From Candidatus Poseidoniaceae archaeon (GTDB lineage: Archaea; Thermoplasmatota; Poseidoniia; Poseidoniales; Poseidoniaceae), in contig JBJLAY010000040.1 of assembly GCA_045568475.1 (NCBI GenBank), positions 1 to 61,373 of the forward strand: 61,373 bases of DNA, read 5' to 3'. Shown here piece after piece: positions 3,501 through 58,848 of this stretch (position 1 is the stretch's first letter; each line of letters starts with the position of its first letter). The position numbers and the translations under genes are program-made. Below the pieces are notes generated by a model. That model did not search any database, was not told the origin of the DNA, and worked only from the letters and a program-made list of their open reading frames with translations.

Positions 3501-3859
3501 GTTCCACCTCCGCCACCAAAGATGCGAATGTGTTCGCAGCCTGCTTCGTCTAGCAATTGACGAATATAGGTGAAGTACTCCATGTGTCCACCTTGATATG
3601 AAGTCAAAGCTACTGCATGTGCATCTTCCTGAACTGCACAATCGACTACATCTTTCGCCGATCTATCATGCCCAAGGTGAATTACTTCTGCACCACTGGA
3701 TTGAATTAGTCTGCGCATGACATTTATCGCAGCATCATGGCCATCGAAAAGACTGGCTGCGGTGATTACACGAACTGGTCCGGTTGTTGTTTCAAACACC
3801 GGCGCCTCCTCGGACATGCTCCTACGGAGCATACATTCGTTCATCATGATACCGTTCAA
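524..3859 (-). CDS. icmF: Fused isobutyryl-CoA mutase (IcmF-type): B12-binding domain, MeaB-like G-protein chaperone and mutase catalytic domain
   Basis: 1111 aa. N-terminus AASLFDGHDAAINVMRR (B12-binding DxHxxG-type). Central P-loop GFTGTGGAGKSSL and NKYE (NKxD-like). Long C-terminal methylmalonyl/isobutyryl-CoA mutase-like TIM-barrel region. The domain order and length match IcmF. Confidence 0.85.
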   Translation of the reverse strand: MNGIMMNECMLRRSMSEEAPVFETTTGPVRVITAASLFDGHDAAINVMRRLIQSSGAEVIHLGHDRSAKDVVDCAVQEDAHAVALTSYQGGHMEYFTYIRQLLDEAGCEHIRIFGGGGGTITPPEIRDLHKSGISKIYSPDDGRKMGLMGMIHDLMGTASEVDLIADSRIQSLNEPITADDMAKVGLLMTLSESASADEFKATLDKVRSSDNDVPVIGFTGTGGAGKSSLLDELMLRILRDNPDKKVCLLCVDPTRKRTGGALLGDRIRMNSLSNNNLFMRSLASRGSGSEISANLDRAIEAAKAVGFDLIFCETSGIGQGSDAITTVSDRSLYVMTAEFGAHTQLEKIEMLDVADLVVLNKYEKRGSEDALRAIRKQVRRNRNMFDVEDLELPVVATIASQFADPGVDVLWQKLAAMVDFNASEPIGVIGERKGVIPPERVHYLSEISSVVRDYHAQNGGVAEKLRVMQHLETASKELPSIKSEVDDHLSELREEIAEASQIVSDFRDLAEQYSSGEFTYYVRGKPFTVSTVTESLSHQMIPRVALPKYSDDGDMYNWIARENAPGHFPFTAGVFPFKRTDELSARMFAGEGEGERTNRRFHLLSQGQDYVRLSTAFDSVTLYGRDPDRRPDIWGKVGNSGVSIASIDDAKRLYSGFDLCDANTSVSMTINGPAPVILAFYLNAAIDQQVEKHLQLEADASGYRGDLPEGHDGFGLATVGKRGDEMVDGATYAEIKAKTLQTVRGTVQADILKEDQAQNTCIFSTPFALKMMGDVQQYYIDNGVRNHYSVSISGYHIAEAGANPITQLALTLANGFTYVEYYRSRGMDVAEFAPNLSFFFSNGLDPEYTVIGRVARRIWAVTMRDLYGADARSQKLKYHIQTSGRSLHAQEIDFNDIRTTLQALLAIQDNANSLHTNAYDEAITTPTEESVRRALAIQLIVNKESGWTKTENPMQGSFIVEELTDLVEEAVLQEFEALSRRGGVLGAMETMYQRGKIQDESMYYEHLKHDGTLPIIGVNTFLNPNATDFDEDSADEFDMELARANPDEKQACLERTQAIPRDEEALSRLQQVAREGGNVFEELMETTKVASLGQITDALFAVGGQYRRNM

Positions 3860-30100: not shown

Positions 30101-32847
30101 ACTGTTAGAGCCCTCTTAGGCCCAACTTCGACGAATATCCTTGCGCCTGCTTCATACATCGTATTGATTTGAGTTGTCCACTCAACACTAGATGCCATTT
30201 GAGGGGCTAGCTTTGACAACACTGCTGATTTAGAATCACTGCCATCATCCATTGGATACCAGCCACCATCGACATTGCTTGTTATTGGAATAGTAGGCCA
30301 ACGGATATCCAATCCTTCGAGGAACCTGCGTAGCGGCTCGTTAGCGGGAGCCACTATTCTGGAATGGAATGCATGACTAGTTGCTAATGCCACAGACTGG
30401 AATCCTTCTGCCTCAAACCTTGACATCGCTTCCTTGACGGGCGCTGTTTCGCCAGCGATGACTGTCATCTTTGGAGAGTTCTTGTTTGCTGCAATTACAT
30501 ATCCATCAATCTCATCTATGATTTCTGCAATTCTCTCATAAGGAGCGGTTACACTTGCCATCAGTCCTTTATCTTCGATTTCAACACTGCCCATTTCGGT
30601 ACCACGGGCTGCTGCTGCTCTAAGTGCTCCATCCATGTCAAGAATACCGGCACTCATCAAAGCAGCGTATTCTCCAAGACTGTGTCCAGCGACCATGTCA
30701 GGGTTATGCCCATGAGAATTCAAGGCTGCTTCTATTGCTAAATCGGATGTAAGCATTGCAGGCTGAGTATATTCGGTCTGCTTGAGTTTGTACTCTGCTT
30801 CTTTTCTTTCTTCAGCAGATAGGTTTTCTCGAAGTACGAACGATGAGAGAGTCTCTCCTTCCAAAACATCTACCATTGTGACATCTGCTTTTTCCCACAC
30901 CTTTCCTACACCAGAATAACGGTTACTCAAGTCCAAGGTCATACCAACATATTGGCTTCCTTGTCCGGGATACATATGAGCGACTTTAGCATTAGTTGGA
31001 AGAGCAGGGTCGTCACTGATCATGACTCCTTGACTCATCAAGAATCCCCATTTTTCTTTATCATCCATTGCCTTTACAGCCAAATCGGTTCGCTTACTCA
31101 ATTCAGCCCAACTTGTAGCAGTAATAGCCATCCTAACCGAGTCACTTTCTGAATATGACCAGTGGTCCTGGAGAGTAAAGGATAGCCTCATCCCCCTGGG
31201 GTCATCATCGAAGTTTGGACCACTAAACGCTATTGAACTCAATTTAGACTTCACTGTAGCGATAGAATCTCCCGAAAGTAATAGCAATCCTCCTTCAACA
31301 GATTTCAATTCATCATGAGTCATTGTAGGCTTTGAATCTGAGACTTCTATGCCAGCATATGCTTCCCATCTGCCGTCCCAATGTGAAACCAATTCAGAAT
31401 GGTACTGCTGTTTGTATTCTTCAATTGCTACGTGGAAGTTCGTTCCACCAAAACCGAAGGCAGAGACTCCTGCTCGACGAGGATGTGACTCCGGTTCTGG
31501 CCAATCTCTCGCTTCGGTTGGAACGAAGAACGGAATCTCACCCCATTCCACAGTAGGGTTTGGAGTTTGGAAACCTGCACTTGGAGGGATTGTGTTGTGG
31601 TATACAGAATTACATGCTTTCATGATTCCAGCAATACCTGCAGCCGCTTTCAGATGCCCAATTTGGCTTTTTACTGAACCTACTGCGATGTGATCGCCAC
31701 CATCAAGTCCTTTCCAAAGTAAAGAAAGAGTAGACAACTCAGTAGCATCTCCTACCTTGGTTGATGTACCGTGTGCTTCAACTAACTCTACAGTTGAAGG
31801 AGCATATCCTGCTTGCGAATAAGCACGGCTAACCGCTTGGACTTGTCCTCTTTGACTTGGAGCTGTAATTCCTTTACCTCTCCCATCTGATGAACCTCCG
31901 ACTCCACGAACTACCGCTTTGACATCATCTCCATCACGAATTGCATCTGAAAGTCTCTTGAGTAGCAATACCCCTGCGCCTTCACCCATTACGAATCCGT
32001 TTGCACGTGCATCGAAAGGCGTTGAGTGAGTTGCAGAAAGGGCGCCTATTGCACTGAATTTAGCGAAGGTTGGAGCTTCCATGCAACGGTCTGTAGCACC
32101 AGCCAACATGGTATCGACTTGTCTTGTCTGTAGTAATCTGCAAGCATCCAGTAATGCCGCCATTGAGGATGCGCATGCTGCATCTGTCGAATAATTTGGA
32201 CCTTGAAGGTCAAGTAAATTCGCAACTCGGCCACTCACTACATTCGCAAGCTCACCCGGCATTGTATCTTCATCGATTCTTGGTTTACCTTCACAGACTT
32301 TCTCAACCATGGCATCTGCCTGTTCTGGAGTTGCTCCATTATCAATTGCAATCTTGCGCATCTCTGCACTGAATACTCGTAAATTGGATTCAGAGCGGTT
32401 TTCTCCTCCAAGAGCGTTAGCAAAAATTACTCCTGTTCTTGCACGATCAAGTGTTTTACCGTCTTCACCATACCCTGCATTCTCAATTGCGTCAGCAGAT
32501 ACCGTAACTGCCCAAAGTTGGCATGGATCGATTTGAGGTAGCGTCCCGGGAGGTTGCCTCCACCTTCTCCAATCAAATTCGTAACCTTCAACAAATCCAC
32601 CGATTTTAGAATATGTTTTACCTTCTGTGACATTCCCTGGTGCGCCATTTTCCCAGTAAATATCAGGGTCCCATCTGCTTTTGTCAACCTCTTTTATCGA
32701 AACATGAGCGTCGATAATGTTCTGCCAGAATTCATCGATGCTTTTTGCATCCGGCATTAGAGCGGCCATGCCGATAATTGCAATCGGTTCAAATGGCGCC
32801 TGATTTAGGCCGTCGACCGGTTTTCCATTGGCAGTGGTGATTGTCAT
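24196..32847 (-). CDS. Type I FAS/PKS megasynthase, PfaA-like: KS - AT - carrier-like - KS - ACP x3 - KR - DH (2883 aa)
   Basis: KS1 (aa ~20-475): DAACASS, EAHGTST, KSQIGH. AT (aa ~620-920): GHSLGEY, AFHS. Degenerate carrier-like segment (aa ~1015-1090). KS2 (aa ~1110-1575): NLACASA, AFHGT, GFTGH. ACPs (aa ~1675-1986): 3x GYP.DF...DQDLEGELGIDTVKQAEIM. KR (aa ~2030-2500): SGGGSGV, DYAAAN. DH (aa ~2565-2870): HAIDGVPYHP. Approximate nt ranges: KS1 31423-32790, AT 30088-30990, KS2 28123-29520, ACPs 26890-27825, KR 25348-26760, DH 24238-25155. Confidence 0.9.
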   Translation of the reverse strand: MTITTANGKPVDGLNQAPFEPIAIIGMAALMPDAKSIDEFWQNIIDAHVSIKEVDKSRWDPDIYWENGAPGNVTEGKTYSKIGGFVEGYEFDWRRWRQPPGTLPQIDPCQLWAVTVSADAIENAGYGEDGKTLDRARTGVIFANALGGENRSESNLRVFSAEMRKIAIDNGATPEQADAMVEKVCEGKPRIDEDTMPGELANVVSGRVANLLDLQGPNYSTDAACASSMAALLDACRLLQTRQVDTMLAGATDRCMEAPTFAKFSAIGALSATHSTPFDARANGFVMGEGAGVLLLKRLSDAIRDGDDVKAVVRGVGGSSDGRGKGITAPSQRGQVQAVSRAYSQAGYAPSTVELVEAHGTSTKVGDATELSTLSLLWKGLDGGDHIAVGSVKSQIGHLKAAAGIAGIMKACNSVYHNTIPPSAGFQTPNPTVEWGEIPFFVPTEARDWPEPESHPRRAGVSAFGFGGTNFHVAIEEYKQQYHSELVSHWDGRWEAYAGIEVSDSKPTMTHDELKSVEGGLLLLSGDSIATVKSKLSSIAFSGPNFDDDPRGMRLSFTLQDHWSYSESDSVRMAITATSWAELSKRTDLAVKAMDDKEKWGFLMSQGVMISDDPALPTNAKVAHMYPGQGSQYVGMTLDLSNRYSGVGKVWEKADVTMVDVLEGETLSSFVLRENLSAEERKEAEYKLKQTEYTQPAMLTSDLAIEAALNSHGHNPDMVAGHSLGEYAALMSAGILDMDGALRAAAARGTEMGSVEIEDKGLMASVTAPYERIAEIIDEIDGYVIAANKNSPKMTVIAGETAPVKEAMSRFEAEGFQSVALATSHAFHSRIVAPANEPLRRFLEGLDIRWPTIPITSNVDGGWYPMDDGSDSKSAVLSKLAPQMASSVEWTTQINTMYEAGARIFVEVGPKRALTVFASQILEGKAALPIMTNHPKAGGISTFLSALGTLALAGRIPDWPGRNSPHLTEAFKAGPIEADNGVVAPTTPLKDRSRPLPSKGGETVTKTVVQSSQKYVDPDAAKIALVGELIAVQSGYPAKFCQGNVDMRAVLGMDDSQIQVVVSSVHARCSTDPDWDITVAKTPADITRWITAAPSIGSKNRSTKFDDRDDDPFVITGISLGLPGGERVFDEGNFEKLVRGETCISEVTDDYKQRLLDKNIVRLIKGRDGSVGMEAATEFGDIPQLAGIKSAFDPSEEFGIDAKIAAAWDIATQLACAAGLIALKDAGIPLSPVEQVGKGGLRLIRSWQMPSSYRDRTGIVFASCFAGHQMAARHAKVNGDDGEGRFDRRYLFQILNMGHSQFAQHVGIRGPNTTINLACASATSAFGVAEDWLAADRCDRVVIISADDVTGDDLWEWIGSGFAASGAAATSNVVEETALPFDRRRNGLILGMGAAAFVVERKSQADERGVQPMAELLGTKIANSAFHGTRLDVEHVASTVDTFIREMEERWGLDRHTMAPDMAFFSHETFTPARGGSAQAEVKALRDTFGASTDSIVIANTKGFTGHPMGVGIEDASMFYGLMTGRIPPIANHKEVDPELGNLTLSKGGNYSNLKYGMRFAAGFGSQIGLSLVRKYDYIGDRIDRQKLLTWNQSIAGTSNVELRVLQNKLVAYVDGDNNLHGGIQGEEYAVAKATAPPVVPVVAETVPKPAAEPEPVAEPVVVKPAAVAAVAVVGDITPAVIEVVVNHTGYPADFVELDQDLEGELGIDTVKQAEIMADIRTLFELPVDEDFILSDYPTLNHMIAYIHKMKGGDVSAPAATPAPTPAVQPAIEAVVEPPAEVVTQTSSHSADVSDIQPKLIGVVVKHTGYPEDFIEMDQDLEGELGIDTVKQAEIMGDVREIFSLPVDEDFVLSDHPTLNHFVAYIQKMTGGVVSVPVEVESIPVEPVPVQVEAAPVAPPPSQSGDGGDIQPKLIGVVVKHTGYPDDFIEMDQDLEGELGIDTVKQAEIMGDVREIFSLPVDEDFVLSDHPTLNHFVAYIQKMKGGSASTTVTAEPVSAPVQAVATPIADPVAPASSPAKTSTRRWQVEVEPCPAVAEGLPIGGTIVITQDSWGVADALATRLTEKGLSVAKIGFEFGAKSVTEQEELSGHTFRANPNSEEQIAEVCSRIDGVGGIIHLAPLSLTGSTWESEGPSNQVALAAQSWFGLLKGLDSQLGVISAGIVGSVTAIDGRHGNRGDRFNALACGASGVTKSYGFERENLRCRALDLHPELIIDAAAAAEIIDNDMFNSGGDVEIGIDRDGRRWTMVCFAEDLVDDIKPLQSDDIWLVSGGGSGVTAASIIGVSNASKDAGATFLLLGRSKLAEETASWLDWSDEQLNTRKMELRESLIAESETGKVTMVEWNNAWTKLTRSMDIYRTIKEIENGGNQAEYHSANVTDSTSISAAVNGRSVTGIVHGAGLEESKLVADKEWSTFDLIVRVKVDGWKSLYSVAGDSLRFACAFTSVAGRFGNGGQTDYAAANSILDAEMARLTATGDCRAVAIGWTGWRDVGMATRGSIEAVFESAGIETLSVEDGVEIFVGEALAGGKRRVLGCGSLGLMDRYDSFREAPLKLPAEMAASIADPRRFPLIDKLVSLDEGKSLVSQCTLSVQDHPFLVDHAIDGVPYHPGVMAMEMFAENSLLLMPGHCIAGFEEVSFGLPVKIMKGAMTVRVEANLEKTNGDLSWVNCRLVSDLVNSKGEIFGEPRLHHQAKVRLVASSDDLSTFLQSEIEALPAIGTPADGELMHHSSFIYLRYFHGPRFQSHGGVLRGVENGVDGIALMRHQLPATDQFALESEGEEVLLDALPMLIEAGFQNAGLAAMESEGFSSLPIGIEWSTMLRVPEADEKLRVRSIKQATEDAGVTVHDVVIVGDDDAPVISLKGLRLKAMGEVAEDQRFTLER
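26890..27825 (-). repeat. Three in-frame tandem ACP-domain repeats (periods 357 and 342 nt) separated by Ala/Pro/Val-rich linkers
   Basis: Copies 2 and 3 share a 96-nt perfectly identical block (26899-26994 = 27241-27336), then diverge progressively. Copy 1 is clearly more diverged. Confidence 0.9.
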
Positions 32848-37148: not shown

Positions 37149-40100
37149 TCACTGATTTTCGTTGACCCAGTCTCGTAGTGTAGCAATATCCCACCCTTGG
37201 TCAAAGTATCCCTGGATGGTTGCTTGATCCCATTGAGGGAATTCGGCGAGAGCCGCAGCCATAGTTGGATCTACACTCGGTGCCGCAGCAGGTGGACCAG
37301 AAGTTGGAGGGCCTGCTACTGGAATCTCAGCATAGGTCTTATCTTCTTCTTCAAATTCATATTCATACTCGTAAGTTCCATCGCCAGAATCACGTTTTGC
37401 TAGTATTACTACAGCAACTAACAGAATCAGAATTAATGCACCTAGACCTACAACAATAAGCATTCCAGAACCTGACAAGAAACCTTCATCAGCAGACTGT
37501 TCTGCTACATTGAAAGACTTAGATTCTTTAGAACCGTTCCACAATATATCATTGGACTCAGCGTCTACAATCAAGAAATACATACCACTTGTTGGGCTAG
37601 CAAATATCTCGAGTTCATCAACGTCTATTTCTGACATTGTACCTTGCTCGATGTCTTCAGTTGTCCATGTATATTCTGTAGTAGGGAATCCTCCTTCTTT
37701 CACAGACTGTATCTCTAGAGTAATATTGCCATCCTTGGTACCGATGTTCTGTAACAAAATTTCCAATGAAGGAGTCTGTCCTACTTCTGGATTCTTTGGA
37801 GTCATTGCTACAGCGATTACCTCGAACTTTGCTTCCTCGTATACCAATCGGTATTGAGAATTATGAACTGGATCATCAGAATAAATTGAGCTTATTCCTC
37901 CAGCACTATTTGGGCCACCTCCATCAATTGACCAACCAGCAGAATCACGACCCTCAATCCACATTACTAGATCAATCGAATTGATTTGTGCCTGTGTTGG
38001 GTCTTGTGGGTCTGGCCACAAATCAACACAATCTGCACTGACCAAGTAATCGCCACCTTGGATCTTCAAATCCATAGGGGTAGACTGAGGCTCTGCACCG
38101 CCGAAGCGCTGACCGTAAACTGGCCATGTTAGATTTGAGTCTGCATCTGTGTAGAAAGACCACAGCAAGTTTACTTCTCCAGCAAGTAGAGCCGCATTCT
38201 CTTCTATCTTTGCTTGAACATCAACACAATGCATAGTAGATGAAGGCATGGTACTGCCTAATACATCCTGGTTTATTCCAGATTTTGCAGACCATGAATC
38301 ATCATCCATTTCTGGTTGAATACCGTCTACCTTTATCTTGAAAGTACTACAACCGAATGCATTGTTTCCATCACAAATTGAAGATGTAGTATCAGTTGCA
38401 CCATCTGGTAAGTCTACCAGGCGGAATGTGTAAGTGTACTCATTTGTAACTGGAGGGGCTGTGATGTTGATACTGAACGCTCCTCCGTCAATAGTATGCA
38501 AAGTTGGCCCATCTGTCTTGGCACCATCAGCGCCGCCTGCAGGGTATGGGAAGTATCCTTTACTTCCATCCATTGTAGCTTCAAGTCTGGTAACCTCAAG
38601 GGTAAACTCTCCTTCTGGTAACACGTAAACACCATTGTTAATTCCATCAACATAAGCGTATTTACCTTCCATTGTAATAGTATCAAGAGGGAATACGAAT
38701 GCAACTTCTACATTTTGTGAGAACGGCTCAGATACATCTGTAAATGTAGGACTGATTCCATTCCTGTAATCTAACTGGATTCCATCGCTGTAGACCCAGC
38801 GTTGCTTGTGCCTACCGCCAGATTCACTCATCAAAGATGGATCTCTATCCATATCCTTAATCCTCAACTGAGGAACATATGTGGTAGATTCAATTCCGAT
38901 AATATCCCAATTCATTCTAATTGGTAAATCCAAATAGAATTCATCTTCGAATGCATCTACTAAGCGTCCGCCATCCATTCGTAGAACTTCTGGACCTTCG
39001 CTCTCATTACTCGCTGTAACGATTTCGATATCCGTGGAGTCTGTCCAAGCAGTCTCGTTACGAGGTGAATAGTACACAACCATATCCTCAGGCCCTAGAT
39101 CGATTTCGAAGTAATTGATATCTCTCCAACCATTTTCATCGGTTGCCTCTACTATCAAGTGGTATTCATTACCAGCGTACATGGTCATATTCCATGGTCC
39201 TTGATAGAACGGAGCACCTTCGTTAGGATTGTGTAACCTTTCACCATCTGAATTTTCAATGAAGAAGTTTCTGATGTTTGGAGTCTTTGCATCCATTGAA
39301 ACATAAGTCACCAAGTCATCATTGAAACCAGGTAACCCACCTTCTATCTTGTTTCCACCAAGGTCTGCACCTTCAATGTAGATACTTACCTTACCGGGAG
39401 GGTCTTGCCCCTTATTGGCATCATCGCTAAATATTCCAGAGTAATTTGCAGTAGGTGCATTTCCATCACTTGTTAAAACTAAGGATGCATATTCATCAGG
39501 GTCTGCAATTCCGTCCATGTCAGTGTCATGGTCATACTCAACCCAGTAGAACATGTCTAAAGTGCTAGGAGGAGCAGGAATATCTTGAGCCAGAACTCTG
39601 ACCTTCTGTTGGGAATTAGGTAGAACCCAGGTGTCATCTACAAGTCCTCTCCAGTTGGACCAAATTGTAGGATCATAGTTAGAGGATTTTAGAACAGAGA
39701 TATTTACCAAACTCGGAGAGAATGTATCGATTGATAGGTTGAAAGGAATTGCACAGTCCTCATCAGATACAATAGGAGTTGGAGGGCATAGCGTATCTCC
39801 ACCCTCATATCCATCAAGCATGAATCTGTAAGTTGCCTGCCCTGCAGCAGTAAATCCAAGGTTTACTTCCCAGTTGAAGTTACCACCAATTATTCCTGTA
39901 GAATTAGAGACTTCTACCCATTCTGAAACAACAGAACCGTTGATTGATTGGACATCCCAGCGTTGTAGTGAGAGGTTGTACGAGGTTGGGTCAGGTGAAA
40001 TATCTAAACCTTCGAGACGGATAGTTCCGACCAGTTCAATATTCTGATTTGAACTTGCAGATGTTAAATTCTGCACAACTCCAGCATCATTTAGAAGTTG

Positions 40101-42968
40101 GAAAGTGGAAATCATAGCATCGTTCTCGATTGCATTTCCATTAACTGGCGCTAGCACTACAGCGCCAGGAAGGCCATTTACTCCATCAGATGCGATTAGG
40201 CTTGCATACAACCTTAACTCAGCTGTATCTTCCCATGCAGTGTTAATTCTGAATCTCCAAGTGACCTGCATCTCGTCACCCGCTTCGGTGTATGTTGAAG
40301 ATTCCATAGTCACTAAATTGTGAGGGTCGTATGCCTCTGTGAAAAGAGATAATTCTGAGAATGCTAATTCCACGACTCCACTAGATGATTCCATACGTAG
40401 TCTTGCTTCAACAAATGTAGAGCCTGTCGATTGATCAACACTGTGAGTAGAGATTGCTTCCACAATATCGCCATTAGGATACAACCCCTCCGGACTACCA
40501 GGTAGAGTTAGTGTTGAGTCATAGCCGGTTGAAGTTGTTATTGAAAGGTCTGAGAACTGCACAGCCCCTCCGCTACCAGCAGACAGTGAAAGAGGAACGT
40601 CAACATTAGCACCAGTGCCTAGAGCAATACCTTGATTCAATTCCCTGTCGAAGTTATGTGAACTAGTAAGAGAGGTTTCCCAATCGTAGAACACGTCAAG
40701 GTGACTAATTGTCACTTCAGTTCCACTGGATGCATTTATGTTAACAATCTCGAATTTGAAAGTCGCCCAATTGTTATCATATTCATCAATGTATGATGGT
40801 TGTAAAAGTGGATTAGTAAGTATAGAATTCAAAGCATCTTTCAATTGAAGCATTGGATATACGGTGTCGTAAGATATCAACGATTTGTTTTCAACTGTTC
40901 CCAAATCAAATTCCTGCCCACTACTAGATACCAATTTGATATCAAATGCACCAGCAGAATTGTTCGACATTATGACGTCGGCCAAATATACTTCAGCACC
41001 CATTGGGAGCATGAAGCTACCACCTGATGCTTCACCATAGGTGTCTAATGTGAGAGTTGCCTTGTCCATACCATGATTCATACCGTTAGCAAATCCTGCC
41101 CATAGAGTACTTTGTCTTCCAAATGAACCGAATGCTGGTTCATTCATTGCCCACTCGACATCACCATCTTCTGCGATATCTAAGCTTACTCCTTCAGCAT
41201 TATGCCCGAATTCGAGATCGAACCAGATTTCAGACATACCACAAGAGTTGTTGTAAGAAACTAGACCAGTAAATCCTAAAATTGGCACATCAGGTATCCA
41301 TTTTTGTCCAACTGTAAGATTAACAATTGAATTGTTCCGTAAGTTTAGTTCGACTGCTGGTTCTTCTAAACAATCATCTACAACAACTGGGGTGACGCCA
41401 ACTATTGGTTGAGAGAATCTCGTACTGTACAGTGGAGGGTCGAATGAATTGTCCACTATTGTAGGCGTGTAAAACAAAAGGTTGCCCTCTCCCGGAGTTT
41501 GCCAAACCCCGTCAATAACCATTGGATCTAATACGACATTTGTGTCATTTAATCCAGTTCCAACTCTAGTGCCAATGTTCAGACCGTGTAGAACGGATGT
41601 TGACAACTTGTATTGGCCTGTATCGAAATCAAACCTCAAATCGATCACAGGGTATTCTGATGAATCGATACCCCAAAGTTCGATGATTGGCCCTTCTAAA
41701 CCGGTCATCTGATTACCATCAACATCTACCACAACCTCTGTTGTGCTACCTCGTAATATTGTTACTGTTAGTGAGTTAGTAGGAGTGGTTTCATGTTCGA
41801 GATTTAGGATTCCGTATCCATCAGGGAAACCTGGGTTAGGACTTTGTTTTGGAGTGAAGCCTTTGACTGTCATTGAGCCTGATTGAGGGAGAGGATCTCC
41901 CATGCGGAAGTCGTCAATGAACCAACCAGGCATGGTTGTGTTTTCAGGAGCACCGCTACCTGAATTGTGAGTTAGAACAAACTTCAGTTGGACATATTTC
42001 TGCACGTGCTCATTGAGATTGAGAGCTAGTGTTGCCCAACCACCTGGGTTTTGTGTAGGATGAGTTGATTCTCCGCCTAATGCGTAATCAGTACCAGTCA
42101 GACTGTCACAACTCTGTATTCTTCCATTTCCAATTCCGATTGGATAAAGACCGTTAGCATAACTAATTCCGGTAGAGTTAGTAGCATCGAATTCGATGTG
42201 GCTCCAACCTGTTTCTGGTGGAGGGAAATTCGGTGATGATGAATTTCTAACCATCACATAGCCACAGTCGTAGTATGTGTTTGTTGGATTAGTACCCGGA
42301 TTTGTTTGAGTCCAATGAAGTCCATGCCAACTTGAGAATTTAGCAATTGGAGAGTTTGGATCAACTTCCATAGATGGAGTTATCATGCTGTAAGAAAATG
42401 TACCACCCTCGTCATCAGTGGTGTAATCATTATCGAAATCATAGATGTTTGTACCCCAGCATTCATTACCAGTGTTACACTTTTCATTTAGAACCATGTT
42501 GTCTGTTAGTTGACCATGCTCCCATCCAGTCGCTTCGAAAACTGGCGGTTGAGTGAAATCAACAAACGAGCCATCTGTGCGTTCGAAGTCAGTAGAAAGG
42601 CCTCCGCTGACTAATTGTACCGTGTCTTCATTGTATGTAAAATCGGATAATGTTGAATATTCAGTCTGTTGATTATTGTATGTAGGGTCCCATACATATT
42701 GAGCGGTTTCAGAATTGATTGATGAATAGGTTTCATGAGTAGCCATATCTGTTGAAATCATCATTGAAGCCCCTGTAACCGTATCGCCGGATGGAAGAGT
42801 TATGGTTCCGTCCACACTATTTGTGTAATCAGGGCCATCTCTAACTTCAACAGTAACTTCACTTCCATTACTGCCGAATGTGGTGATGTTTGCGGCTCCT
42901 GCTAATGGGCAAATAAGCATCAAACATGTGAATACCAAAGCGGTTATTGCATTCTTATTATCATTCAT
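37149..42968 (-). CDS. Giant (~1940 aa) secreted surface protein with a C-terminal TM anchor; no recognisable domains
   Basis: The start is taken at MNDNKNAITALVFTCLMLICPLAGAANI (ATG 42968). It is Thr/Ser/Asn/Asp-rich with beta-rich-looking composition. C-terminal helix MLIVVGLGALILILLVAVVILA and an acidic/Pro-rich tail. Confidence 0.7.
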   Translation of the reverse strand: MNDNKNAITALVFTCLMLICPLAGAANITTFGSNGSEVTVEVRDGPDYTNSVDGTITLPSGDTVTGASMMISTDMATHETYSSINSETAQYVWDPTYNNQQTEYSTLSDFTYNEDTVQLVSGGLSTDFERTDGSFVDFTQPPVFEATGWEHGQLTDNMVLNEKCNTGNECWGTNIYDFDNDYTTDDEGGTFSYSMITPSMEVDPNSPIAKFSSWHGLHWTQTNPGTNPTNTYYDCGYVMVRNSSSPNFPPPETGWSHIEFDATNSTGISYANGLYPIGIGNGRIQSCDSLTGTDYALGGESTHPTQNPGGWATLALNLNEHVQKYVQLKFVLTHNSGSGAPENTTMPGWFIDDFRMGDPLPQSGSMTVKGFTPKQSPNPGFPDGYGILNLEHETTPTNSLTVTILRGSTTEVVVDVDGNQMTGLEGPIIELWGIDSSEYPVIDLRFDFDTGQYKLSTSVLHGLNIGTRVGTGLNDTNVVLDPMVIDGVWQTPGEGNLLFYTPTIVDNSFDPPLYSTRFSQPIVGVTPVVVDDCLEEPAVELNLRNNSIVNLTVGQKWIPDVPILGFTGLVSYNNSCGMSEIWFDLEFGHNAEGVSLDIAEDGDVEWAMNEPAFGSFGRQSTLWAGFANGMNHGMDKATLTLDTYGEASGGSFMLPMGAEVYLADVIMSNNSAGAFDIKLVSSSGQEFDLGTVENKSLISYDTVYPMLQLKDALNSILTNPLLQPSYIDEYDNNWATFKFEIVNINASSGTEVTISHLDVFYDWETSLTSSHNFDRELNQGIALGTGANVDVPLSLSAGSGGAVQFSDLSITTSTGYDSTLTLPGSPEGLYPNGDIVEAISTHSVDQSTGSTFVEARLRMESSSGVVELAFSELSLFTEAYDPHNLVTMESSTYTEAGDEMQVTWRFRINTAWEDTAELRLYASLIASDGVNGLPGAVVLAPVNGNAIENDAMISTFQLLNDAGVVQNLTSASSNQNIELVGTIRLEGLDISPDPTSYNLSLQRWDVQSINGSVVSEWVEVSNSTGIIGGNFNWEVNLGFTAAGQATYRFMLDGYEGGDTLCPPTPIVSDEDCAIPFNLSIDTFSPSLVNISVLKSSNYDPTIWSNWRGLVDDTWVLPNSQQKVRVLAQDIPAPPSTLDMFYWVEYDHDTDMDGIADPDEYASLVLTSDGNAPTANYSGIFSDDANKGQDPPGKVSIYIEGADLGGNKIEGGLPGFNDDLVTYVSMDAKTPNIRNFFIENSDGERLHNPNEGAPFYQGPWNMTMYAGNEYHLIVEATDENGWRDINYFEIDLGPEDMVVYYSPRNETAWTDSTDIEIVTASNESEGPEVLRMDGGRLVDAFEDEFYLDLPIRMNWDIIGIESTTYVPQLRIKDMDRDPSLMSESGGRHKQRWVYSDGIQLDYRNGISPTFTDVSEPFSQNVEVAFVFPLDTITMEGKYAYVDGINNGVYVLPEGEFTLEVTRLEATMDGSKGYFPYPAGGADGAKTDGPTLHTIDGGAFSINITAPPVTNEYTYTFRLVDLPDGATDTTSSICDGNNAFGCSTFKIKVDGIQPEMDDDSWSAKSGINQDVLGSTMPSSTMHCVDVQAKIEENAALLAGEVNLLWSFYTDADSNLTWPVYGQRFGGAEPQSTPMDLKIQGGDYLVSADCVDLWPDPQDPTQAQINSIDLVMWIEGRDSAGWSIDGGGPNSAGGISSIYSDDPVHNSQYRLVYEEAKFEVIAVAMTPKNPEVGQTPSLEILLQNIGTKDGNITLEIQSVKEGGFPTTEYTWTTEDIEQGTMSEIDVDELEIFASPTSGMYFLIVDAESNDILWNGSKESKSFNVAEQSADEGFLSGSGMLIVVGLGALILILLVAVVILAKRDSGDGTYEYEYEFEEEDKTYAEIPVAGPPTSGPPAAAPSVDPTMAAALAEFPQWDQATIQGYFDQGWDIATLRDWVNENQ

Positions 42969-43032
42969 GGGGCTACCCTCTCTCCTCTTCCAGTCCAGTC
43001 TGACATAAAAGACCGACGGGGAAGTGTCTGAG

Positions 43033-43060
43033 CGGGTTCCCCCCTTTAGGGGGGTACCCG
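43033..43060 (-). terminator. GC-clamp hairpin (C6-loop-G6 core) just downstream of the ThiI-like gene
   Basis: Reads cgggttcccccc-ttta-ggggggtacccg: 11 bp with one T-T mismatch. It lies 7 nt past the stop at 43067. No oligo-T follows, so terminator function is only a guess. Confidence 0.3.
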
Positions 43061-43066
43061 GTAATC

Positions 43067-43732
43067 TCAAAGAGACACTAATTTAGATTGCGAAAAACTT
43101 GTGAAAGCGAGGTGCTGCAAGCCACCGGCTCTCTCTTCGGATTGCTCTAACCATTCCTTATTAGCCACTGTTGTAGGCTTCTTAGGCCCTAAAGCGTCAC
43201 ATACTTCTGGTCCTTCACTGATAGAAAGTGTGCCGATTTTCCTAGCCATTGTCATAATAGTAACTTTATCGAAGGCCAATAATGGCCTAAGGGGGTGTAA
43301 ATCAGTGGCGATCTCAACACCTCCTAAGTTCCCGAGTGTTTGGCTAGAAACTTGGCCTAGATTTTCACCAGTAAGTACATGCGTTGCACCCACTTCATTA
43401 CCTCGGAGTGTTGCAATAGAATTGAATAACCGTTTCATATGGATGAAGTATTCTGTGTGATTCCATTTTTCGGTGAAAAGTGCTAATTGTTCAGCGACTG
43501 GAACTACTATTAAATCCCTGGATAGATTTTCTCTGGCTGCATCACCAAGGGGGCCTTCCAATTCTAATAAATGTCTGAGTAATGCGATTGTCTTCTGCTC
43601 AGCAGCAGGACCGGTCACCTGCTCTTGAGATGCATGTAAAGGATAGACTTTCCAGCCTTTCATCAACATTCTAGCAACTGCTACTGGGGAATCAATCCCT
43701 CCACTAACGAGTGCTATGCAAATACCCGCCAT
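43067..43732 (-). CDS. PP-loop ATPase, ThiI-like tRNA sulfurtransferase catalytic domain only (no THUMP domain)
   Basis: MAGICIALVSGGIDSPVA (SGGxDS PP-loop), with the ThiI-like remainder (..VLTGENLGQVSSQTL..). About 220 aa. Confidence 0.65.
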   Translation of the reverse strand: MAGICIALVSGGIDSPVAVARMLMKGWKVYPLHASQEQVTGPAAEQKTIALLRHLLELEGPLGDAARENLSRDLIVVPVAEQLALFTEKWNHTEYFIHMKRLFNSIATLRGNEVGATHVLTGENLGQVSSQTLGNLGGVEIATDLHPLRPLLAFDKVTIMTMARKIGTLSISEGPEVCDALGPKKPTTVANKEWLEQSEERAGGLQHLAFTSFSQSKLVSL

Positions 43733-52372: not shown

Positions 52373-53614
52373 TTGAAGAGAAATATTTTCGATGGAATTC
52401 TCAACCAGAAGACTCTATTTGTTCAAAAAGAAGTACTGCGCCACACTTACCAGCCAGAATCTCTACCTCACCGAAATGAAGAAAGAGACCAACTTTCATT
52501 CAATCTAGTAGAGGCACTCAAAGGGCATATTCCTTCAAACATGATATTGTACGGCGTGACTGGCGCTGGAAAAACAGCCGTCACTAGATATGTTTGCGAC
52601 CAACTTCAACGCAAGGGTGAATCTATTGGAAGATTTGTTCATCCAGTAATGGTAAACTGTCGACAGATAGATACTCAATACAGGGTTTTATCGCATCTTG
52701 GTAATGCATTACTCGAAGATCATGAGAAAGACGAGATTCCTTTCACAGGCTGGCCAACCGACAGAGTATTCTCTGAATTGGTAAAGAGAATGAACATGCG
52801 TGGAGGCGTATATGTTCTAGTTCTGGATGAAATAGACCATCTAGTAAAGAAAGCTGGGGACGACCTCTTGTACAACCTAACTAATTTGAATGCTGAATTA
52901 GAAAATGCTAGAGCATGTGTAATCGGAATTTCAAATGATCTAAAGTTCACAGATTTCCTTGACCCAAGAGTTCGTAGTAGACTCGGCCAGCAAGATATTG
53001 TATTCAATCCATACAACGCTGAACAGTTGCAGGACATTCTGCGCTCACGTGCTAAACTTGGAATTAATAGTGAATCAATTGGCGCAGGAGTGATTGAATT
53101 GTGTGCTGCCTTGGCTGCTCAAGAGCATGGTGATGCACGTTGTGCTCTCGATTTATTACGCGTATCTACTGAAAAGGCTGAGCAAGAGGGTGTTGACGTG
53201 GTTGAACAGAACCATGTTCGAATCGCCCAAGCTCAAATTGAATCTGACCAAGTAACTCCTGTGATTAGAACTCTACCAACTCAACAAAAGTTAGTACTTG
53301 CATCTGTATTGATCAATGAAAAGAATGGATTGAGAAATATTCAGACTGGTGAAGTTTACCACATCTACAAACAAGCATGCACCCACATTGGGCAGCAATT
53401 CCTGACAGCAAGAAGAATCTCAGGAATTATATCTAATCTTGACATGCTGGGCTTGGTTACAGCAAAAACAATCTCAAGAGGACGATACGGAAGGAGTAAG
53501 GAAATCAATTCATGTATTCCAACAAACATTGACCCATGTGATGTAATGGCAAAGGCAGAACCTACTCTTACCGAGGTTTTCTCGGCAAAGTACCGCCATC
53601 AAAGTCTGCTTTGA
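52373..53614 (+). CDS. cdc6: Orc1/Cdc6 replication initiator
   Basis: AAA+ Walker A LYGVTGAGKTAV and Walker B VLVLDEIDHL, sensor regions, and a C-terminal winged helix (ISNLDMLGLVTAKTISRGRYGRSKEI). The TTG start is preceded by GGAGGTG 8 nt upstream. Confidence 0.9.
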   Translation: MKRNIFDGILNQKTLFVQKEVLRHTYQPESLPHRNEERDQLSFNLVEALKGHIPSNMILYGVTGAGKTAVTRYVCDQLQRKGESIGRFVHPVMVNCRQIDTQYRVLSHLGNALLEDHEKDEIPFTGWPTDRVFSELVKRMNMRGGVYVLVLDEIDHLVKKAGDDLLYNLTNLNAELENARACVIGISNDLKFTDFLDPRVRSRLGQQDIVFNPYNAEQLQDILRSRAKLGINSESIGAGVIELCAALAAQEHGDARCALDLLRVSTEKAEQEGVDVVEQNHVRIAQAQIESDQVTPVIRTLPTQQKLVLASVLINEKNGLRNIQTGEVYHIYKQACTHIGQQFLTARRISGIISNLDMLGLVTAKTISRGRYGRSKEINSCIPTNIDPCDVMAKAEPTLTEVFSAKYRHQSLL

Positions 53615-53629
53615 TACATTTACAGCCTA

Positions 53630-54229
53630 TTGAGGGCTATGCCAAGACTCTTAAACGCGTCCAAGGTCGAACGGCGCATGAGCACTGATGTTGAGAATGG
53701 AAAGAACGGTATGTTCGAGATTCTGACACAACCCTCGAAAACCTTGGCAACATGGTATTTCTGGATAGGTAGCCTCGGATTATTCCTTGCTGTACTGAAC
53801 CTGACAAACAATATTCATCCAAACTACCATGTTTCATGGGGCGGACTGCTTACCTTCGAATATACCAATGATGCATTCGGGGACAAAGACACTGCTGCTG
53901 CATTCGCAATTGGAGATGCAGTATTCATCATGCTGTGCGGCGGAATTGCTGCACTTGGAGTCCGCACTCTATCAGGGGAAGACGGAATTGGAGAATGGGT
54001 GTCATCAATGCTTACTAGTAAATGGTACAACGACCTTGTCGAACCAGGTAATGGTGGCTGGTCACTAATCGTCGGTACATGGTCGATGTTAGGAAGTATC
54101 GTATTCTACTTCTACTGGGGAATCACTTCCACAACATGGATTGACCCTGGTGTATATTCATGGTCGATCGCTATGATGGCTGTTGGATTAGTACTACGAA
54201 TGCTCGCATCTGTCGAACAGGAAGAATAA
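53630..54229 (+). CDS. Hypothetical membrane protein (4-5 TM)
   Basis: 199-aa ORF with several hydrophobic helices. No family recognised, and the start is uncertain. Confidence 0.45.
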   Translation: MRAMPRLLNASKVERRMSTDVENGKNGMFEILTQPSKTLATWYFWIGSLGLFLAVLNLTNNIHPNYHVSWGGLLTFEYTNDAFGDKDTAAAFAIGDAVFIMLCGGIAALGVRTLSGEDGIGEWVSSMLTSKWYNDLVEPGNGGWSLIVGTWSMLGSIVFYFYWGITSTTWIDPGVYSWSIAMMAVGLVLRMLASVEQEE

Positions 54230-55246
54230 TCAGTGCCCGTTTCGACGTAATAAAGCGTCTAAATAACCCTGCATAATTCCAATCCATAGTGTTAATGACC
54301 AAGTAATCAATACGAATAATGGCTTGATTCCATTCTTAGGCAAGTGACTTCTAAAGAATGAAGATGCCCAGAATAATGGAAGAAGTGAAAGTAATAGCAC
54401 TTCCCTAGATAGTGAGTAATAAGCTGAATCTGTATTAATCTCATCATAAGAAAGTAAGTTTTCGATGTATAACGATGTACTAAAACATCCCATGACTAGC
54501 AAAGGAACCATCCACAGAACAATCCATGAAGAACCGATAAAGTCGTGCTTTACTCCTTTGTATCTGCGATGAATACGGACGTGTGCTCTAGCATCTCTTC
54601 TTCTCTTATGCAAAAATCTTCCAAGACCAGTTTCAGGAATATGATTTACCACAGCATTTGGAGTATATACAATAGTTCCACCATCCTGAACTAACTTCAG
54701 TGATACTTCCATATCTTCTGCATGATACCAAGAAGGGTCGAAACCGCCTATCGAGCGCAACCTTTCTGTCAAAAACATCGAACAGGGACCGTTTGCTAAT
54801 TTCGTGCTACGTGGACGAGATCGATATTTTGATTCAATTTCAACAGACCTTATCCTCGATATCACATCGTCTGCTTGCCCGAATACAGTCCTTCCAGTTA
54901 CTGCAACTACCTCTTCTCCATCTCTAGATCTAGAGACTTCAAGCATTCTTTCAATCCAATCCTTTTCTGGTCTAACATCAATATCTGTAATTGCAAACCA
55001 ATCACCGTTTGCAGATTCTAATGCTGCCATCCTACCTGCTGATAATCCAATAGCACTTTGATTTATGACGGTAACTAGTTCATGTCCAGCCCAGTCTTTG
55101 ACCTTATCTTGGCTTCCATCACTTGAACCGTCGTCGACTAAAATTATCTCAATAGGACTGTGAGTTTGATTGACTAATGAATCAAGACAACCATCAATCC
55201 AATCAATACCGTCTCTAACGCAAACAGCAACTGAAACAAGAGTCAT
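54230..55246 (-). CDS. Family 2 glycosyltransferase with a C-terminal TM region
   Basis: MTLVSVAVCVRDGIDWIDGCLDSLVNQTHSPIEIILVDDGSSDGS ... TDIDV (DxD). The ATG at 55246 overlaps the stop of the upstream PPAT-DPCK gene (ATGA). Confidence 0.8.
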   Translation of the reverse strand: MTLVSVAVCVRDGIDWIDGCLDSLVNQTHSPIEIILVDDGSSDGSQDKVKDWAGHELVTVINQSAIGLSAGRMAALESANGDWFAITDIDVRPEKDWIERMLEVSRSRDGEEVVAVTGRTVFGQADDVISRIRSVEIESKYRSRPRSTKLANGPCSMFLTERLRSIGGFDPSWYHAEDMEVSLKLVQDGGTIVYTPNAVVNHIPETGLGRFLHKRRRDARAHVRIHRRYKGVKHDFIGSSWIVLWMVPLLVMGCFSTSLYIENLLSYDEINTDSAYYSLSREVLLLSLLPLFWASSFFRSHLPKNGIKPLFVLITWSLTLWIGIMQGYLDALLRRNGH

Positions 55247-56232
55247 TCTTTCACCCCGAATCTGGACAATAACCCTCGGCACTGTTCTTTGGCCTCCAGA
55301 CTTGTGATTCTGAGAACTACACCTTTACCGGGCTGCCCATAAATCACATTAGTGCCTAATGGGGCTAGCAAATGAACAATAATTGGAGCGAGATCTTCTT
55401 CGCCTTCAACCTCGATACAAGTGGTCTGATCGTTATGTAGAGCGGCGTGTATGGAATCGATGAGTGATGGCGTAATGGCACCTGCCGGGTTATCGGCCTT
55501 TAGGAGGATATCGAATGAAGATAAGTCGACTTTATCGGTAAGTTCGCTTCTCTTAGTCATTCCATCTACTAAACCAATATCTGGAGTTACGCCCATATCC
55601 AATAGAGCCTCAACACTAACATCTCCTACTGCTATAATTCCGCCCGGCGCAATGTTCTCCATTGCTGCAGACATTGCGACTTCAGGAGATTCTTCTGGAC
55701 CAAGGAATAATTCGCCGGCTGGCTCTTTTAGTTCAGCATCCAAACCTCTGTGGAAGAGGTATGTCTTACTCCTATCAGATTCATTCAACCATTGTTTACC
55801 ATTTTTATCAATAAGGCCTGCTCTTATTCTGGTACTGGAAATGATTCCTCCAGTCTCATCTAGAGTGTGTGAAACTTCAATGATTTCAAGGGGTACAAGT
55901 CCATTTTTCAACCTAATTTCATTAATTGATTGGCAATTACTCAATGTTTCAGGAGTGCAGATTATGCTGTCACAGTCTTTTCGAATGGGCGCAGGACCCA
56001 TGCTATCTTCCAGCTCATGGGTTGAAATCCTTTCATCTGCCCAAGCAAGTATAGCTTCTCTACGATCTTCGAATGATTGTAGGAATGGTGATTTTGAAGC
56101 CGACATCGCATCATTTGTTATCCAAACCTCGACTAATTCAGCAACTTCAAGAGCAGTAAGAAGCAATTCCTTGTGGCCATCGTGAAACCTATCGAAGGTG
56201 CCGCCTACTAAGCAGCGTTCCAACTTCGCCAT
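55243..56232 (-). CDS. Fusion of archaeal-type phosphopantetheine adenylyltransferase (PPAT) and a DUF359-type dephospho-CoA kinase
   Basis: N-terminal half: VGGTFDRFHDGHKELL (HxGH) and IISSTRIR (ISSTxIR), as in cytidylyltransferase-like archaeal PPAT. C-terminal half: LKEPAGEL, AVGDVSVEAL, PDIGLVDGMTKR, NPAGAITP, VEGEEDLAPI..APLGTNVIYGQPGKGVVL, matching DUF359/UPF0218. The start is probably ATG 56232 (track 56262). Confidence 0.7.
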   Translation of the reverse strand: MAKLERCLVGGTFDRFHDGHKELLLTALEVAELVEVWITNDAMSASKSPFLQSFEDRREAILAWADERISTHELEDSMGPAPIRKDCDSIICTPETLSNCQSINEIRLKNGLVPLEIIEVSHTLDETGGIISSTRIRAGLIDKNGKQWLNESDRSKTYLFHRGLDAELKEPAGELFLGPEESPEVAMSAAMENIAPGGIIAVGDVSVEALLDMGVTPDIGLVDGMTKRSELTDKVDLSSFDILLKADNPAGAITPSLIDSIHAALHNDQTTCIEVEGEEDLAPIIVHLLAPLGTNVIYGQPGKGVVLRITSLEAKEQCRGLLSRFGVKE

Positions 56233-56274
56233 ACTATCGACTGTGTTTGGATGGCTATTCAATGAATCGCAAAG

Positions 56275-56555
56275 AAAGCTGTGCCCCGACCCGTAACAGC
56301 CCCTGTCACAGTCTCCTCGGGAGCTTGACCCAGGGTCAGGGCTTATCTGTGCAGCCGGTTGGTTGTCTCACTCTCATACTCTCGTCCAGCGAGGACCCAT
56401 TACCGACCACATTGTCCATCGGTTTGCATCAGAGGTCATTCTCCGAGGAGTCACCCTGGTCTTCGTCGATGGCACGTGGCCGCTATCATTGGTATCGCAG
56501 TTCACTGAGCGGACGCTCTCCGTGCGATGTTGCATGTGCGGCCAATTGGCTCTCA
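56275..56555. ncRNA. Candidate structured non-coding RNA (identity and strand unresolved; SRP RNA or RNase P RNA size class)
   Basis: About 300-nt gap between two minus-strand CDS. My manual count gives 140 G+C in 240 nt (56281-56520, about 58%), against visibly lower GC in the flanks. The region is open in several frames on both strands, but the translations are not protein-like. It has multiple stable local and long-range helices (see finding). I could not find diagnostic SRP or RNase P motifs. Confidence 0.35.
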
Positions 56556-56562
56556 AAGCACA

Positions 56563-58848
56563 TCATTGTTGAAACCGTCGGTGTAGAGCAAGATGGATTT
56601 CTTGGTTGAAGTCAGTAGTCAGTGGCGGCTCAGGCATCTGCTTTTGGAATAGCCAACCTGCTAATGGGTGGCTTTTTCCTGAAACGGGAGGTCTTCCTTC
56701 TTCTGCAGCCTTTAGAGCCTCTGCAACATCCTCTAACGAATCTGTCCCAATGCCTTCAGGCATGTGATGAACCAGGACCAAATCTTCTGCTTTCAAATCT
56801 TGCTCAAACAATATAGCGGCCCAAGGTAAGTCTAGTAGAGAAAGTGCTGAACGACCTAGGGTTGATGACATACACATCAATAACCAAGAGGTTGATTGAT
56901 TTTTCCATAATGAAAAGTGGACATCTTCCATTATTCCTAACGCATCTTCGCGCTCAAAGTTATCTTGATTCAATAACTTACTATGATGAGGGCATGCAAC
57001 TACTAAACGTTCGATTCCAGGTTTGTTCCAATTCTTACGTAGTACTTCCGAAACTTCTAATGGATTTGATAACCATGTATCGGTCACATCCAATTCTTCC
57101 TCGAACCATTCTGAACTGAGTAGTATTACAGTTGCTATGGCGGGATGGTGTGTATCAAGTGAAATTATACTGAGGGGATTGTTCCTTATTCTCTCCATTA
57201 GAATGACTAGTGCATCACTGTCCACTAATGCGAGATCTGCAAGAGTGGAAGTGTCAAAGTCATCCAAAGTCGCTAAGGTTGCCCATACTGGATTCAGGTA
57301 TTCTCCAATCCTCCTCCATCTAGCAGATTGGCCCGCCCTTGGTGTCGCAATCCATGCTGCAAGTGGGAAACTTTTCTCGTGGCGGTCAGCCCATTCTTCA
57401 TCCCCGTTTGCCAATTTACATGCCTGCCACATTGCTTCGATTTGATTATCTGAATTTTTGGCAGAAGATGAATTGCCCCTTCTCAATTCTCTAGGATTCG
57501 AAGGAGGGATCCAATCGTTTGGTACAGAAATTTCTGAATCAATACTAATTGGCAGATGAAGACGGCCAGGCATTTCCAAATCGAATTTACCTTGGCCCTC
57601 TTGTGAGGTAAGAACAAAAGGTAAGCCGATATCAGGTATTTCGCAAATTACCATTCTACATTTGCCATCACTGGCAAACCTAGTTAACAAATTATGATTA
57701 GCAGGCCAACGCCAATCCAAAACAATAGGAAGATTAGAAGCTTCTAATGAAAAATTGACAATAGATTCTGCAGCACGTTGCGAAATAGATCTAGTATCGA
57801 TTATATTGTCAAAACTATCTGTCCAAACTCTTCCGGGAAAATCATTCAACACTTTTCTTGTTAATGCATTAGATGATGAGTTTTCAAGATCCTCTAGAAG
57901 GCGATTGTATTTTTCATCAATCGATTTTTGACCAAGCCTAGGGTGAATTAATTTCAACCAATTTCTAAGTATACCCCTCGGCAAAGGGTTTGCAGGAATA
58001 GATAGAAGATCGCCATCAACTATTTTCAAGGATTTCGAAGGAGCATTTCTAACAATCAAAGATCTTTCACTTCGGCGACCTAATCTGGCATGGACTCCAC
58101 CTCTAGGCCTTACTTGTGGACCCGAATTACCCGCTCTTCCAATAGCTGCATCACCATCACGTAACACATCAGGTAGTTCGGGCCAGTGCCCAGATGGTAA
58201 AGATGTGAACCAACTTCCCACTCCTAATGGCCATGGCTTGGAATCCTGTAGAAGTTTAGCTCGGACAACTCCCATCACTTTCGGTCGTTCCATCCAAGCG
58301 GTAAGTGTCATTGGACTAGCATCTGTAGGAGCCACGGCTCGACGCATAGATTCCAAATCCCACCACACTGGATCTTCTCCTCTTTGTACAGCCCACTGCC
58401 ATGATATTGACGCCCCCTCATTTCCACTGGAGTTTTCTAATACTCCACTTTCATCATTCATAGGTCTATCAGGCAGGCCAAGAAGAGGTCCTGCTGGCAT
58501 AGATGCGTAACCAAGTAGTAACATTGAGCCTTCTCGTGCTAGCACAATTCCAGCCGCACCAGGAGGTGGAGGCCATCTTACTAGTTCGTCCAAACGAGCT
58601 AAACCATCTCCTTCTAGACGACTCAATCCCTGAGATGAAAGTCGATACCTAGAACCGCGTAAATTGTGATCATCTCGGGCTACGTCCCCCGATTCACGCA
58701 ATTTCTTCAATGCTGCAGATGCGTGTGGAACTCTAAGTCCCAATGCATTGGAAACCTCAGTTACGGTCCCTCCGCCATCTGCCAACCAATCTAGGATTCT
58801 TCGTTGGTAAGTGGAACGAATACGGTTACTTCGCACCATTGTCACCAA
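56563..58848 (-). CDS. Large hypothetical protein with an N-terminal winged-helix DNA-binding domain
   Basis: 761 aa. N-terminus RRILDWLADGGGTVTEVSNALGLRVPHASAALKKLRESGDVARD (ArsR/MarR/TrmB-like wHTH). The remaining ~680 aa have no recognisable motif. Start is TTG 58848 or ATG 58839. Confidence 0.6.
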   Translation of the reverse strand: MVTMVRSNRIRSTYQRRILDWLADGGGTVTEVSNALGLRVPHASAALKKLRESGDVARDDHNLRGSRYRLSSQGLSRLEGDGLARLDELVRWPPPPGAAGIVLAREGSMLLLGYASMPAGPLLGLPDRPMNDESGVLENSSGNEGASISWQWAVQRGEDPVWWDLESMRRAVAPTDASPMTLTAWMERPKVMGVVRAKLLQDSKPWPLGVGSWFTSLPSGHWPELPDVLRDGDAAIGRAGNSGPQVRPRGGVHARLGRRSERSLIVRNAPSKSLKIVDGDLLSIPANPLPRGILRNWLKLIHPRLGQKSIDEKYNRLLEDLENSSSNALTRKVLNDFPGRVWTDSFDNIIDTRSISQRAAESIVNFSLEASNLPIVLDWRWPANHNLLTRFASDGKCRMVICEIPDIGLPFVLTSQEGQGKFDLEMPGRLHLPISIDSEISVPNDWIPPSNPRELRRGNSSSAKNSDNQIEAMWQACKLANGDEEWADRHEKSFPLAAWIATPRAGQSARWRRIGEYLNPVWATLATLDDFDTSTLADLALVDSDALVILMERIRNNPLSIISLDTHHPAIATVILLSSEWFEEELDVTDTWLSNPLEVSEVLRKNWNKPGIERLVVACPHHSKLLNQDNFEREDALGIMEDVHFSLWKNQSTSWLLMCMSSTLGRSALSLLDLPWAAILFEQDLKAEDLVLVHHMPEGIGTDSLEDVAEALKAAEEGRPPVSGKSHPLAGWLFQKQMPEPPLTTDFNQEIHLALHRRFQQ

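Follow-up and report, generated by a model that had tools for sequence, protein, structure and literature searches.

A PPAT fused to a DUF359-type dephospho-CoA kinase as the probable enzyme for both final steps of CoA synthesis in Poseidoniales

Does the open reading frame at 55243..56232 encode a single enzyme for the last two steps of CoA synthesis, or is it two genes joined by error? It lies in a stretch of 61,373 nucleotides from a Candidatus Poseidoniaceae archaeon, called the window here. A sequence-only reading had assigned the frame to one polypeptide composed of an archaeal PPAT (pantetheine-phosphate adenylyltransferase) and a DUF359-type dephospho-CoA kinase (DPCK). This architecture was indeed found: both domains reside, PPAT first, in an uninterrupted minus-strand frame of 329 aa with an ATG start, a TGA stop and no internal stop (protein P0001). 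The mechanical list of open reading frames also offers a TTG start at 56262, 30 nt (ten codons) upstream of the ATG. The ATG at 56232 is favoured because dozens of homologues are exactly 329 aa long; full-length homologues range from 326 to 340 aa, each with PF01467 and PF04019. We propose, with a probability of about 0.9, that P0001 is a bifunctional 'archaeal CoA synthase', i.e. a housekeeping enzyme for both final CoA steps in Poseidoniales (marine group II).

The PPAT domain occupies residues 3-148 (55789..56226, minus strand), as delimited by NF001985, PDB 3do8 and motifs. Both motifs on which the sequence-only reading had based its assignment are present, namely GGTFDRFHDGH at residues 10-20, with the HxGH signature at H17-G19-H20, and ISSTRIR at residues 131-137. 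The assignment also holds at the level of family models: Pfam assigned CTP_transf_like (PF01467) to residues 8-138 with 44.1 bits (cut-off 21) and an E value of 3e-11, and residues 3-148 reached 125.3 bits with NF001985, the NCBIfam model of archaeal PPAT, whose cut-off is 104. Residue conservation was derived from 136 aligned fused proteins, that is P0001 and 135 cluster representatives. H17 and G19 were invariant in all 136 of these, and H20 was kept in 134. The N-terminal half matched the Archaeoglobus fulgidus PPAT-type protein (PDB 3do8) in sequence (E 7e-11) and, when the modelled half was compared by Foldseek, in structure (TM (target) 0.78-0.81); for bacterial CoaD structures the corresponding value was about 0.62. 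The half thus has the Rossmann-like nucleotidyltransferase fold by which archaeal PPAT (COG1019 / NF001985) is recognized.

The DPCK domain (DUF359/arCOG04076) spans residues 161-327 (55252..55752, minus strand), as delimited by PF04019, NF041125 and PDB 8jvc. The C-terminal half, previously recognised as DUF359 by its motifs, does match the corresponding HMM: Pfam placed PF04019 at residues 209-325 with an E value of 1.3e-29 and 102.8 bits against a cut-off of 25, so that both expected domain calls, CTP_transf_like and DUF359, exceed their gathering cut-offs. All the motifs named earlier were located as well: VGDV at 202-205, DGMTKR at 223-228, NPAG at 248-251, GEEDL at 277-281 and YGQPGKGVV at 298-306. 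In NCBIfam, positions 6-171 of the 176 in NF041125, a model of GTP-dependent DPCK, align to residues 161-327. The NF041125 score of P0001 (103.7 bits) is far under the equivalog cut-off of 300, and that of NF041124 (69.9 bits) is likewise far under 290; both are Thermococcales equivalog models, and NF041125 is tuned to Thermococcales. Because the NF041125 score stays below its cut-off, our claim is restricted to membership of the DPCK family and does not extend to the equivalog.

A closer link to a characterised enzyme is provided by TK1697 of Thermococcus kodakarensis. This protein was proved to be a GTP-dependent DPCK (PMC6650551), as the sequence-only reading had stated of DUF359 in that species. 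Its structure (PDB 8jvc) matched the C-terminal half of P0001 with E 8.8e-26 and 38% identity. In the 8jvc alignment, Asp48, Asp67 and Asp125 of TK1697 correspond to D204 (55621-55623), D223 (55564-55566) and D280 (55393-55395, all minus strand) of P0001, and alanine substitution of these three TK1697 residues impaired in vivo complementation (PMC6650551). Every one of the 135 aligned fused representatives has Asp at the positions of D204 and D223, and 133 have it at that of D280. The modelled C-terminal half was also superimposable on 8jvc and 8jvg, with TM (target) of 0.84-0.86 and rmsd of 2.8-3.7 Å (Foldseek).

Between the two domains lies a junction of residues 149-160 (55753..55788, minus strand), and the gap between the two HMM envelopes is about 6-10 residues in nearly all fused homologues. 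An AlphaFold model of the fused protein, computed with 60 fused homologues as input, had a mean pLDDT of 96 and a pTM of 0.91; the interdomain junction was modelled with pLDDT above 90, and each half matched its expected PDB fold (3do8 and 8jvc). No solved structure spanning both halves was present among the Foldseek matches. The predicted arrangement, by its pTM of 0.91, leaves room for two fixed sites between which dephospho-CoA might be channelled.

The fusion is conserved order-wide. A full-length, stop-free fused match was detected in 120 of the 121 Poseidoniales genomes sampled, which represent three families and 21 genera, and throughout the 136 diverged fused proteins the residues of catalysis and of the signature motifs vary little or not at all in either half. 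As for other possible sources of the two activities, the source genome of P0001, which is only 67% complete, contains a single DUF359 match and only one other CTP_transf_like match, which lies on a different contig, in an open frame of 178 aa. No match to CoaE (PF01121) was found by Pfam in P0001, nor was one found in its source genome; a search of five Poseidoniales genomes, with completeness of 91-97% in four, detected no CoaE, PanC or type III PanK. Archaeal phosphopantothenate synthetase (PPS) was present in all five, and CoaBC was present in the source genome of P0001, the only one searched for it. As neither a second DUF359 protein nor a CoaE was found, no candidate other than the fused protein is visible for the two last CoA steps.

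The following course of reaction can be proposed. The N-terminal domain would adenylylate 4'-phosphopantetheine with ATP to yield dephospho-CoA, and the DUF359 domain would phosphorylate the 3'-OH of dephospho-CoA to yield CoA, the phosphate donor being most probably GTP, by likeness to TK1697. The fused enzyme would in this way complete an otherwise archaeal-type CoA route (phosphopantothenate synthetase, CoaBC). The direct observations are the identity of the two domains, their conserved catalytic residues, the fold, the conservation throughout the order and the lack of a CoaE alternative; from these we infer both enzyme activities, the GTP preference and any intersite channelling of P0001.

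The fused gene is embedded in a recognizable neighbourhood. Its stop codon TGA (55245-55243) overlaps the ATG (55246-55244) of the next minus-strand gene, as read from the sequence (...gaATGActc..., ATGA at 55243-55246). That gene (54230..55246) encodes a 338-aa GT2 glycosyltransferase (PF00535, E 6.6e-25), whose domain starts at residue 5; we regard it as a neighbour only, with no role in CoA synthesis. Gene order was compared in ten Poseidoniales loci, and the conserved neighbourhood, which corresponds to 52373-58848 of the window and to loci L002-L011, comprises all three families of the order. It consists of a wHTH protein gene (roughly 760-860 aa), a spacer of about 300-430 nt, PPAT-DPCK, GT2 where present, a membrane-protein gene (~200 aa) and orc1/cdc6. 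GT2 follows the fused gene in seven of the ten loci, at varying distance: the two genes overlap by 4 nt at loci L002 and L006 and by 1 nt at L003, and they are separated by 9-11 nt at L004 and L010. In the remaining three (L007, L008 and L011), all of the Thalassarchaeaceae type (family f3), GT2 is absent and the membrane-protein gene comes directly after the fused gene. Thus, the ATGA overlap noticed in the sequence-only reading is real, but coupling to GT2 is not a conserved trait of the fusion because GT2 is missing in the three f3 loci.

The spacer directly upstream of PPAT-DPCK (56263-56562, minus strand) drew our attention in its own right. It contains 77 invariant columns across eight genomes of three families and folds into four to five hairpins, with compensatory changes in 36 of 60 predicted pairs, and it ends with ...GGGGCACAGCTTTCTTT about 35 nt before the PPAT-DPCK ATG. 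Comparison with HgcG/Pab40, a multi-hairpin H/ACA guide RNA, gave a sub-threshold score of 17 bits (E 0.0087) against a gathering score of 77, and this was the only hint that Rfam provided for the spacer. Our own reading, judged from sequence and predicted folding, is that the spacer is a putative multi-hairpin H/ACA-type sRNA. Elsewhere in the window, a 1111-aa protein composed of B12-binding, MeaB GTPase and methylmalonyl-CoA mutase domains, an IcmF-like fused acyl-CoA mutase, is encoded at 524-3859 (minus strand), and a 1973-aa open reading frame at 37149-43070 (minus strand) matched no Pfam family at E ≤ 1e-4.

Several other explanations of the locus have to be weighed. The simplest, that an assembly error or a frameshift joined two separate genes, is already refuted by the order-wide survey: the same continuous stop-free frame recurs in those 120 independently assembled genomes and, at 326-340 aa, in hundreds of metagenomic clusters, and the junction is confidently modelled. 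Nothing was found in its support, the sole adjacent unfused PPAT/DPCK pair being that of genome G255 (locus L012), and we leave it next to no chance. Another explanation would make the fusion a dedicated CoA supply module, tied functionally to GT2 or to a PKS/FAS-like megasynthase. Every carrier protein needs CoA, and the window does contain a 2883-aa KS-AT-ACP-KR-DH megasynthase, PUFA/FAS/PKS-like (24196-32847, minus strand), while the ATGA overlap points to GT2. A functional link to GT2 was nevertheless rejected, since GT2 is absent from the f3 loci, which keep the wHTH gene, the RNA spacer, the membrane protein and orc1/cdc6. As for the megasynthase, the suggested connection receives no support beyond the general CoA need of carrier proteins: the 22 kb in between are filled with many unrelated genes, and the fused gene sits beside orc1/cdc6 and not in the synthase operon. 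The near-universal presence of the fused gene in the order and its position as sole candidate for the essential last CoA steps also argue against a dedicated module, which we hold to be very improbable.

It could further be supposed that one of the domains is catalytically dead or differently employed, e.g. in regulation or binding, and that the protein is therefore not bifunctional. This is at odds with the fact that the 136 diverged fused proteins retain the catalytic as well as the signature residues in each domain, and it would leave the cell with no other visible source of DPCK, given that neither a second DUF359 gene nor CoaE was detected; accordingly, we judge it highly unlikely. More weight can be given to the idea that in these mesophilic marine archaea the donor of the kinase half is ATP in place of GTP, or that this half is promiscuous. 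Donor specificity has been established in one enzyme only, TK1697 of a hyperthermophile, with which the kinase half shares just 38% identity and which is the only member characterised. On the other side, the half has its fold and conserved residues in common with the GTP-dependent enzyme, and use of ATP seems to us rather unlikely. The bifunctional PPAT/DPCK therefore remains the preferred reading of P0001.

How far the fusion extends beyond Poseidoniales was surveyed in several ways. Among 201 Thermoplasmatota genomes, the fused gene was present in all 36 Poseidoniales; the other 165, two of which belong to the same class, had separate PPAT and DPCK matches, located at different places in most of these genomes, and no full-length fused match. 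The adjacent pair mentioned above (contig C276 of G255, locus L012) consists of PPAT and DPCK genes at 494-1006 and 978-1568 (minus strand), overlapping by 29 nt in different frames, and may be an operon of the kind that precedes fusion, or else a fused gene broken by a frameshift. In non-Poseidoniales Thermoplasmatota, many PPAT matches fall within open frames that are about 300-430 aa long. In both of the frames that we scanned (L115:370-1338, minus; L117:205-1275, plus), Pfam detected PPAT followed by NTPase_I-T (DUF84), an architecture that corresponds to NF002250 of NCBIfam, 'bifunctional PPAT/NTP phosphatase'. PPAT of Thermoplasmatota is thus found with two alternative C-terminal partners, DPCK or DUF84, within one phylum.

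With E ≤ 1e-30 as the limit, an exhaustive profile search retrieved 227 cluster representatives; over 100 are full-length fused proteins, at just 31-39% identity. A search for shorter relatives brought up truncated Poseidoniales fragments for the most part, and true stand-alone kinases were few. In a scan of species-representative genomes, the fusion was encountered in Micrarchaeota (including Norongarragalinales) and in many CPR bacteria (Gottesman-, Roizman-, Levy-, Chisholm-, Kaiser- and Parcubacteria), with both domains in one frame at all 80 loci of the scan. The survey that had been suggested along with the original assignment shows the architecture, order-wide in Poseidoniales, to be common in Micrarchaeota and CPR bacteria as well. 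Some MAGs labelled Gammaproteobacteria also carry it, and their positions in the domain trees lie inside CPR groups; those labelled Gammaproteobacteria/Pseudomonadales cluster in Levy-/Roizmanbacteria (L018, L024, L026, L028, L042, L048 and L053). Similarly, DPCK domains are identical on contigs assigned to a 'Norongarragalinales archaeon' (L020) and to 'Kaiserbacteria' (L027). The taxon labels of L020/L027 and of the Gammaproteobacteria/Pseudomonadales-labelled records look unreliable.

Variants of the architecture were observed as well. P0268 and a CPR locus (L017:2983-4488) have two cytidylyltransferase-like domains followed by DUF359. At the Roizmanbacteria loci L022, L030 and L041, the domains are separated by an insert of ~100 aa. 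In the metagenomic protein P0261 (321 aa), the order is reversed, with DUF359 preceding PPAT, from which it follows that the fusion arose more than once. In single-domain trees, Poseidoniales form one clade for both domains (SH-aLRT 99 and 100). Such a pattern is compatible with one event, fusion or acquisition, at the root of the order, and the ancestor of Poseidoniales probably either formed the fused gene or received it. In the DPCK tree, Poseidoniales are placed on the side of stand-alone Thermoplasmatota proteins, and in the PPAT tree they group weakly with some CPR forms, the backbone being without resolution in both. When all fused forms were constrained to one clade, the AU test did not reject this topology (p 0.46, log-likelihood difference 1.4). 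That all PPAT-first fusions of Poseidoniales, Micrarchaeota and CPR descend from one fused gene moved between archaea and bacteria is a tentative idea, with the odds clearly against it. If it were true, the Poseidoniales ancestor would have swapped its split genes for the fused one via horizontal transfer.

The Poseidoniales PPAT-DPCK fusion is not new, as it was already published in 2019. That domain fusions link DUF359 with CoA biosynthesis had been noted before (Makarova et al. 2019, PMC6393860), and the PPAT-arCOG04076 fusion of group II/III euryarchaeota was used to find the archaeal DPCK, prompting the testing of TK1697 (Shimosaka, Makarova, Koonin, Atomi, mBio 2019, PMC6650551). Its guilt-by-association value has thus already been exploited in the literature. 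Public names of the fused proteins mostly reflect the PPAT half only ('pantetheine-phosphate adenylyltransferase', 'cytidyltransferase-like protein' or 'hypothetical protein'), and the annotation should read bifunctional PPAT/dephospho-CoA kinase. As judged from gene content, our survey would confirm that Poseidoniales finish the archaeal CoA route with one fused enzyme and no CoaE.

P0001 can finally be set beside the known systems. The published group II/III fusion (example AIF21550.1) has the same two domains, order and lineage and is the published case itself; nothing material differs from it as described in the literature. TK1697 (PDB 8jvc, 8jvf, 8jvg) is homologous to the C-terminal half, in which its Asp48, Asp67 and Asp125 are kept, but it is a stand-alone protein of 177 aa from a hyperthermophile, whereas the DPCK of P0001 sits behind PPAT. 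Archaeal PPAT (TK2128; 3do8; NF001985) shares HxGH, ISSTxxR and fold with the N-terminal half; in P0001 this half is fused to DPCK, while other Thermoplasmatota PPAT is stand-alone or fused to DUF84. T. kodakarensis becomes auxotrophic for CoA when TK2128 or TK1697 is deleted. The PPAT-DUF359 proteins of Micrarchaeota and CPR/Patescibacteria have the architecture of P0001 at 31-42% identity over full length, although some of them possess an extra N-terminal cytidylyltransferase-like domain or the insert of ~100 aa, unlike P0001. Eukaryotic COASY follows the same plan, a single polypeptide with PPAT ahead of DPCK. The analogy to this CoA synthase was drawn when the archaeal kinase was identified, the eukaryotic kinase being of the unrelated P-loop type (PMC6650551). 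In agreement with this and with the sequence-only reading, the P-loop, CoaE-type kinase of COASY has no counterpart in P0001, which gives no CoaE signal (no PF01121 match), and for this reason the two kinases are analogous and not homologous.
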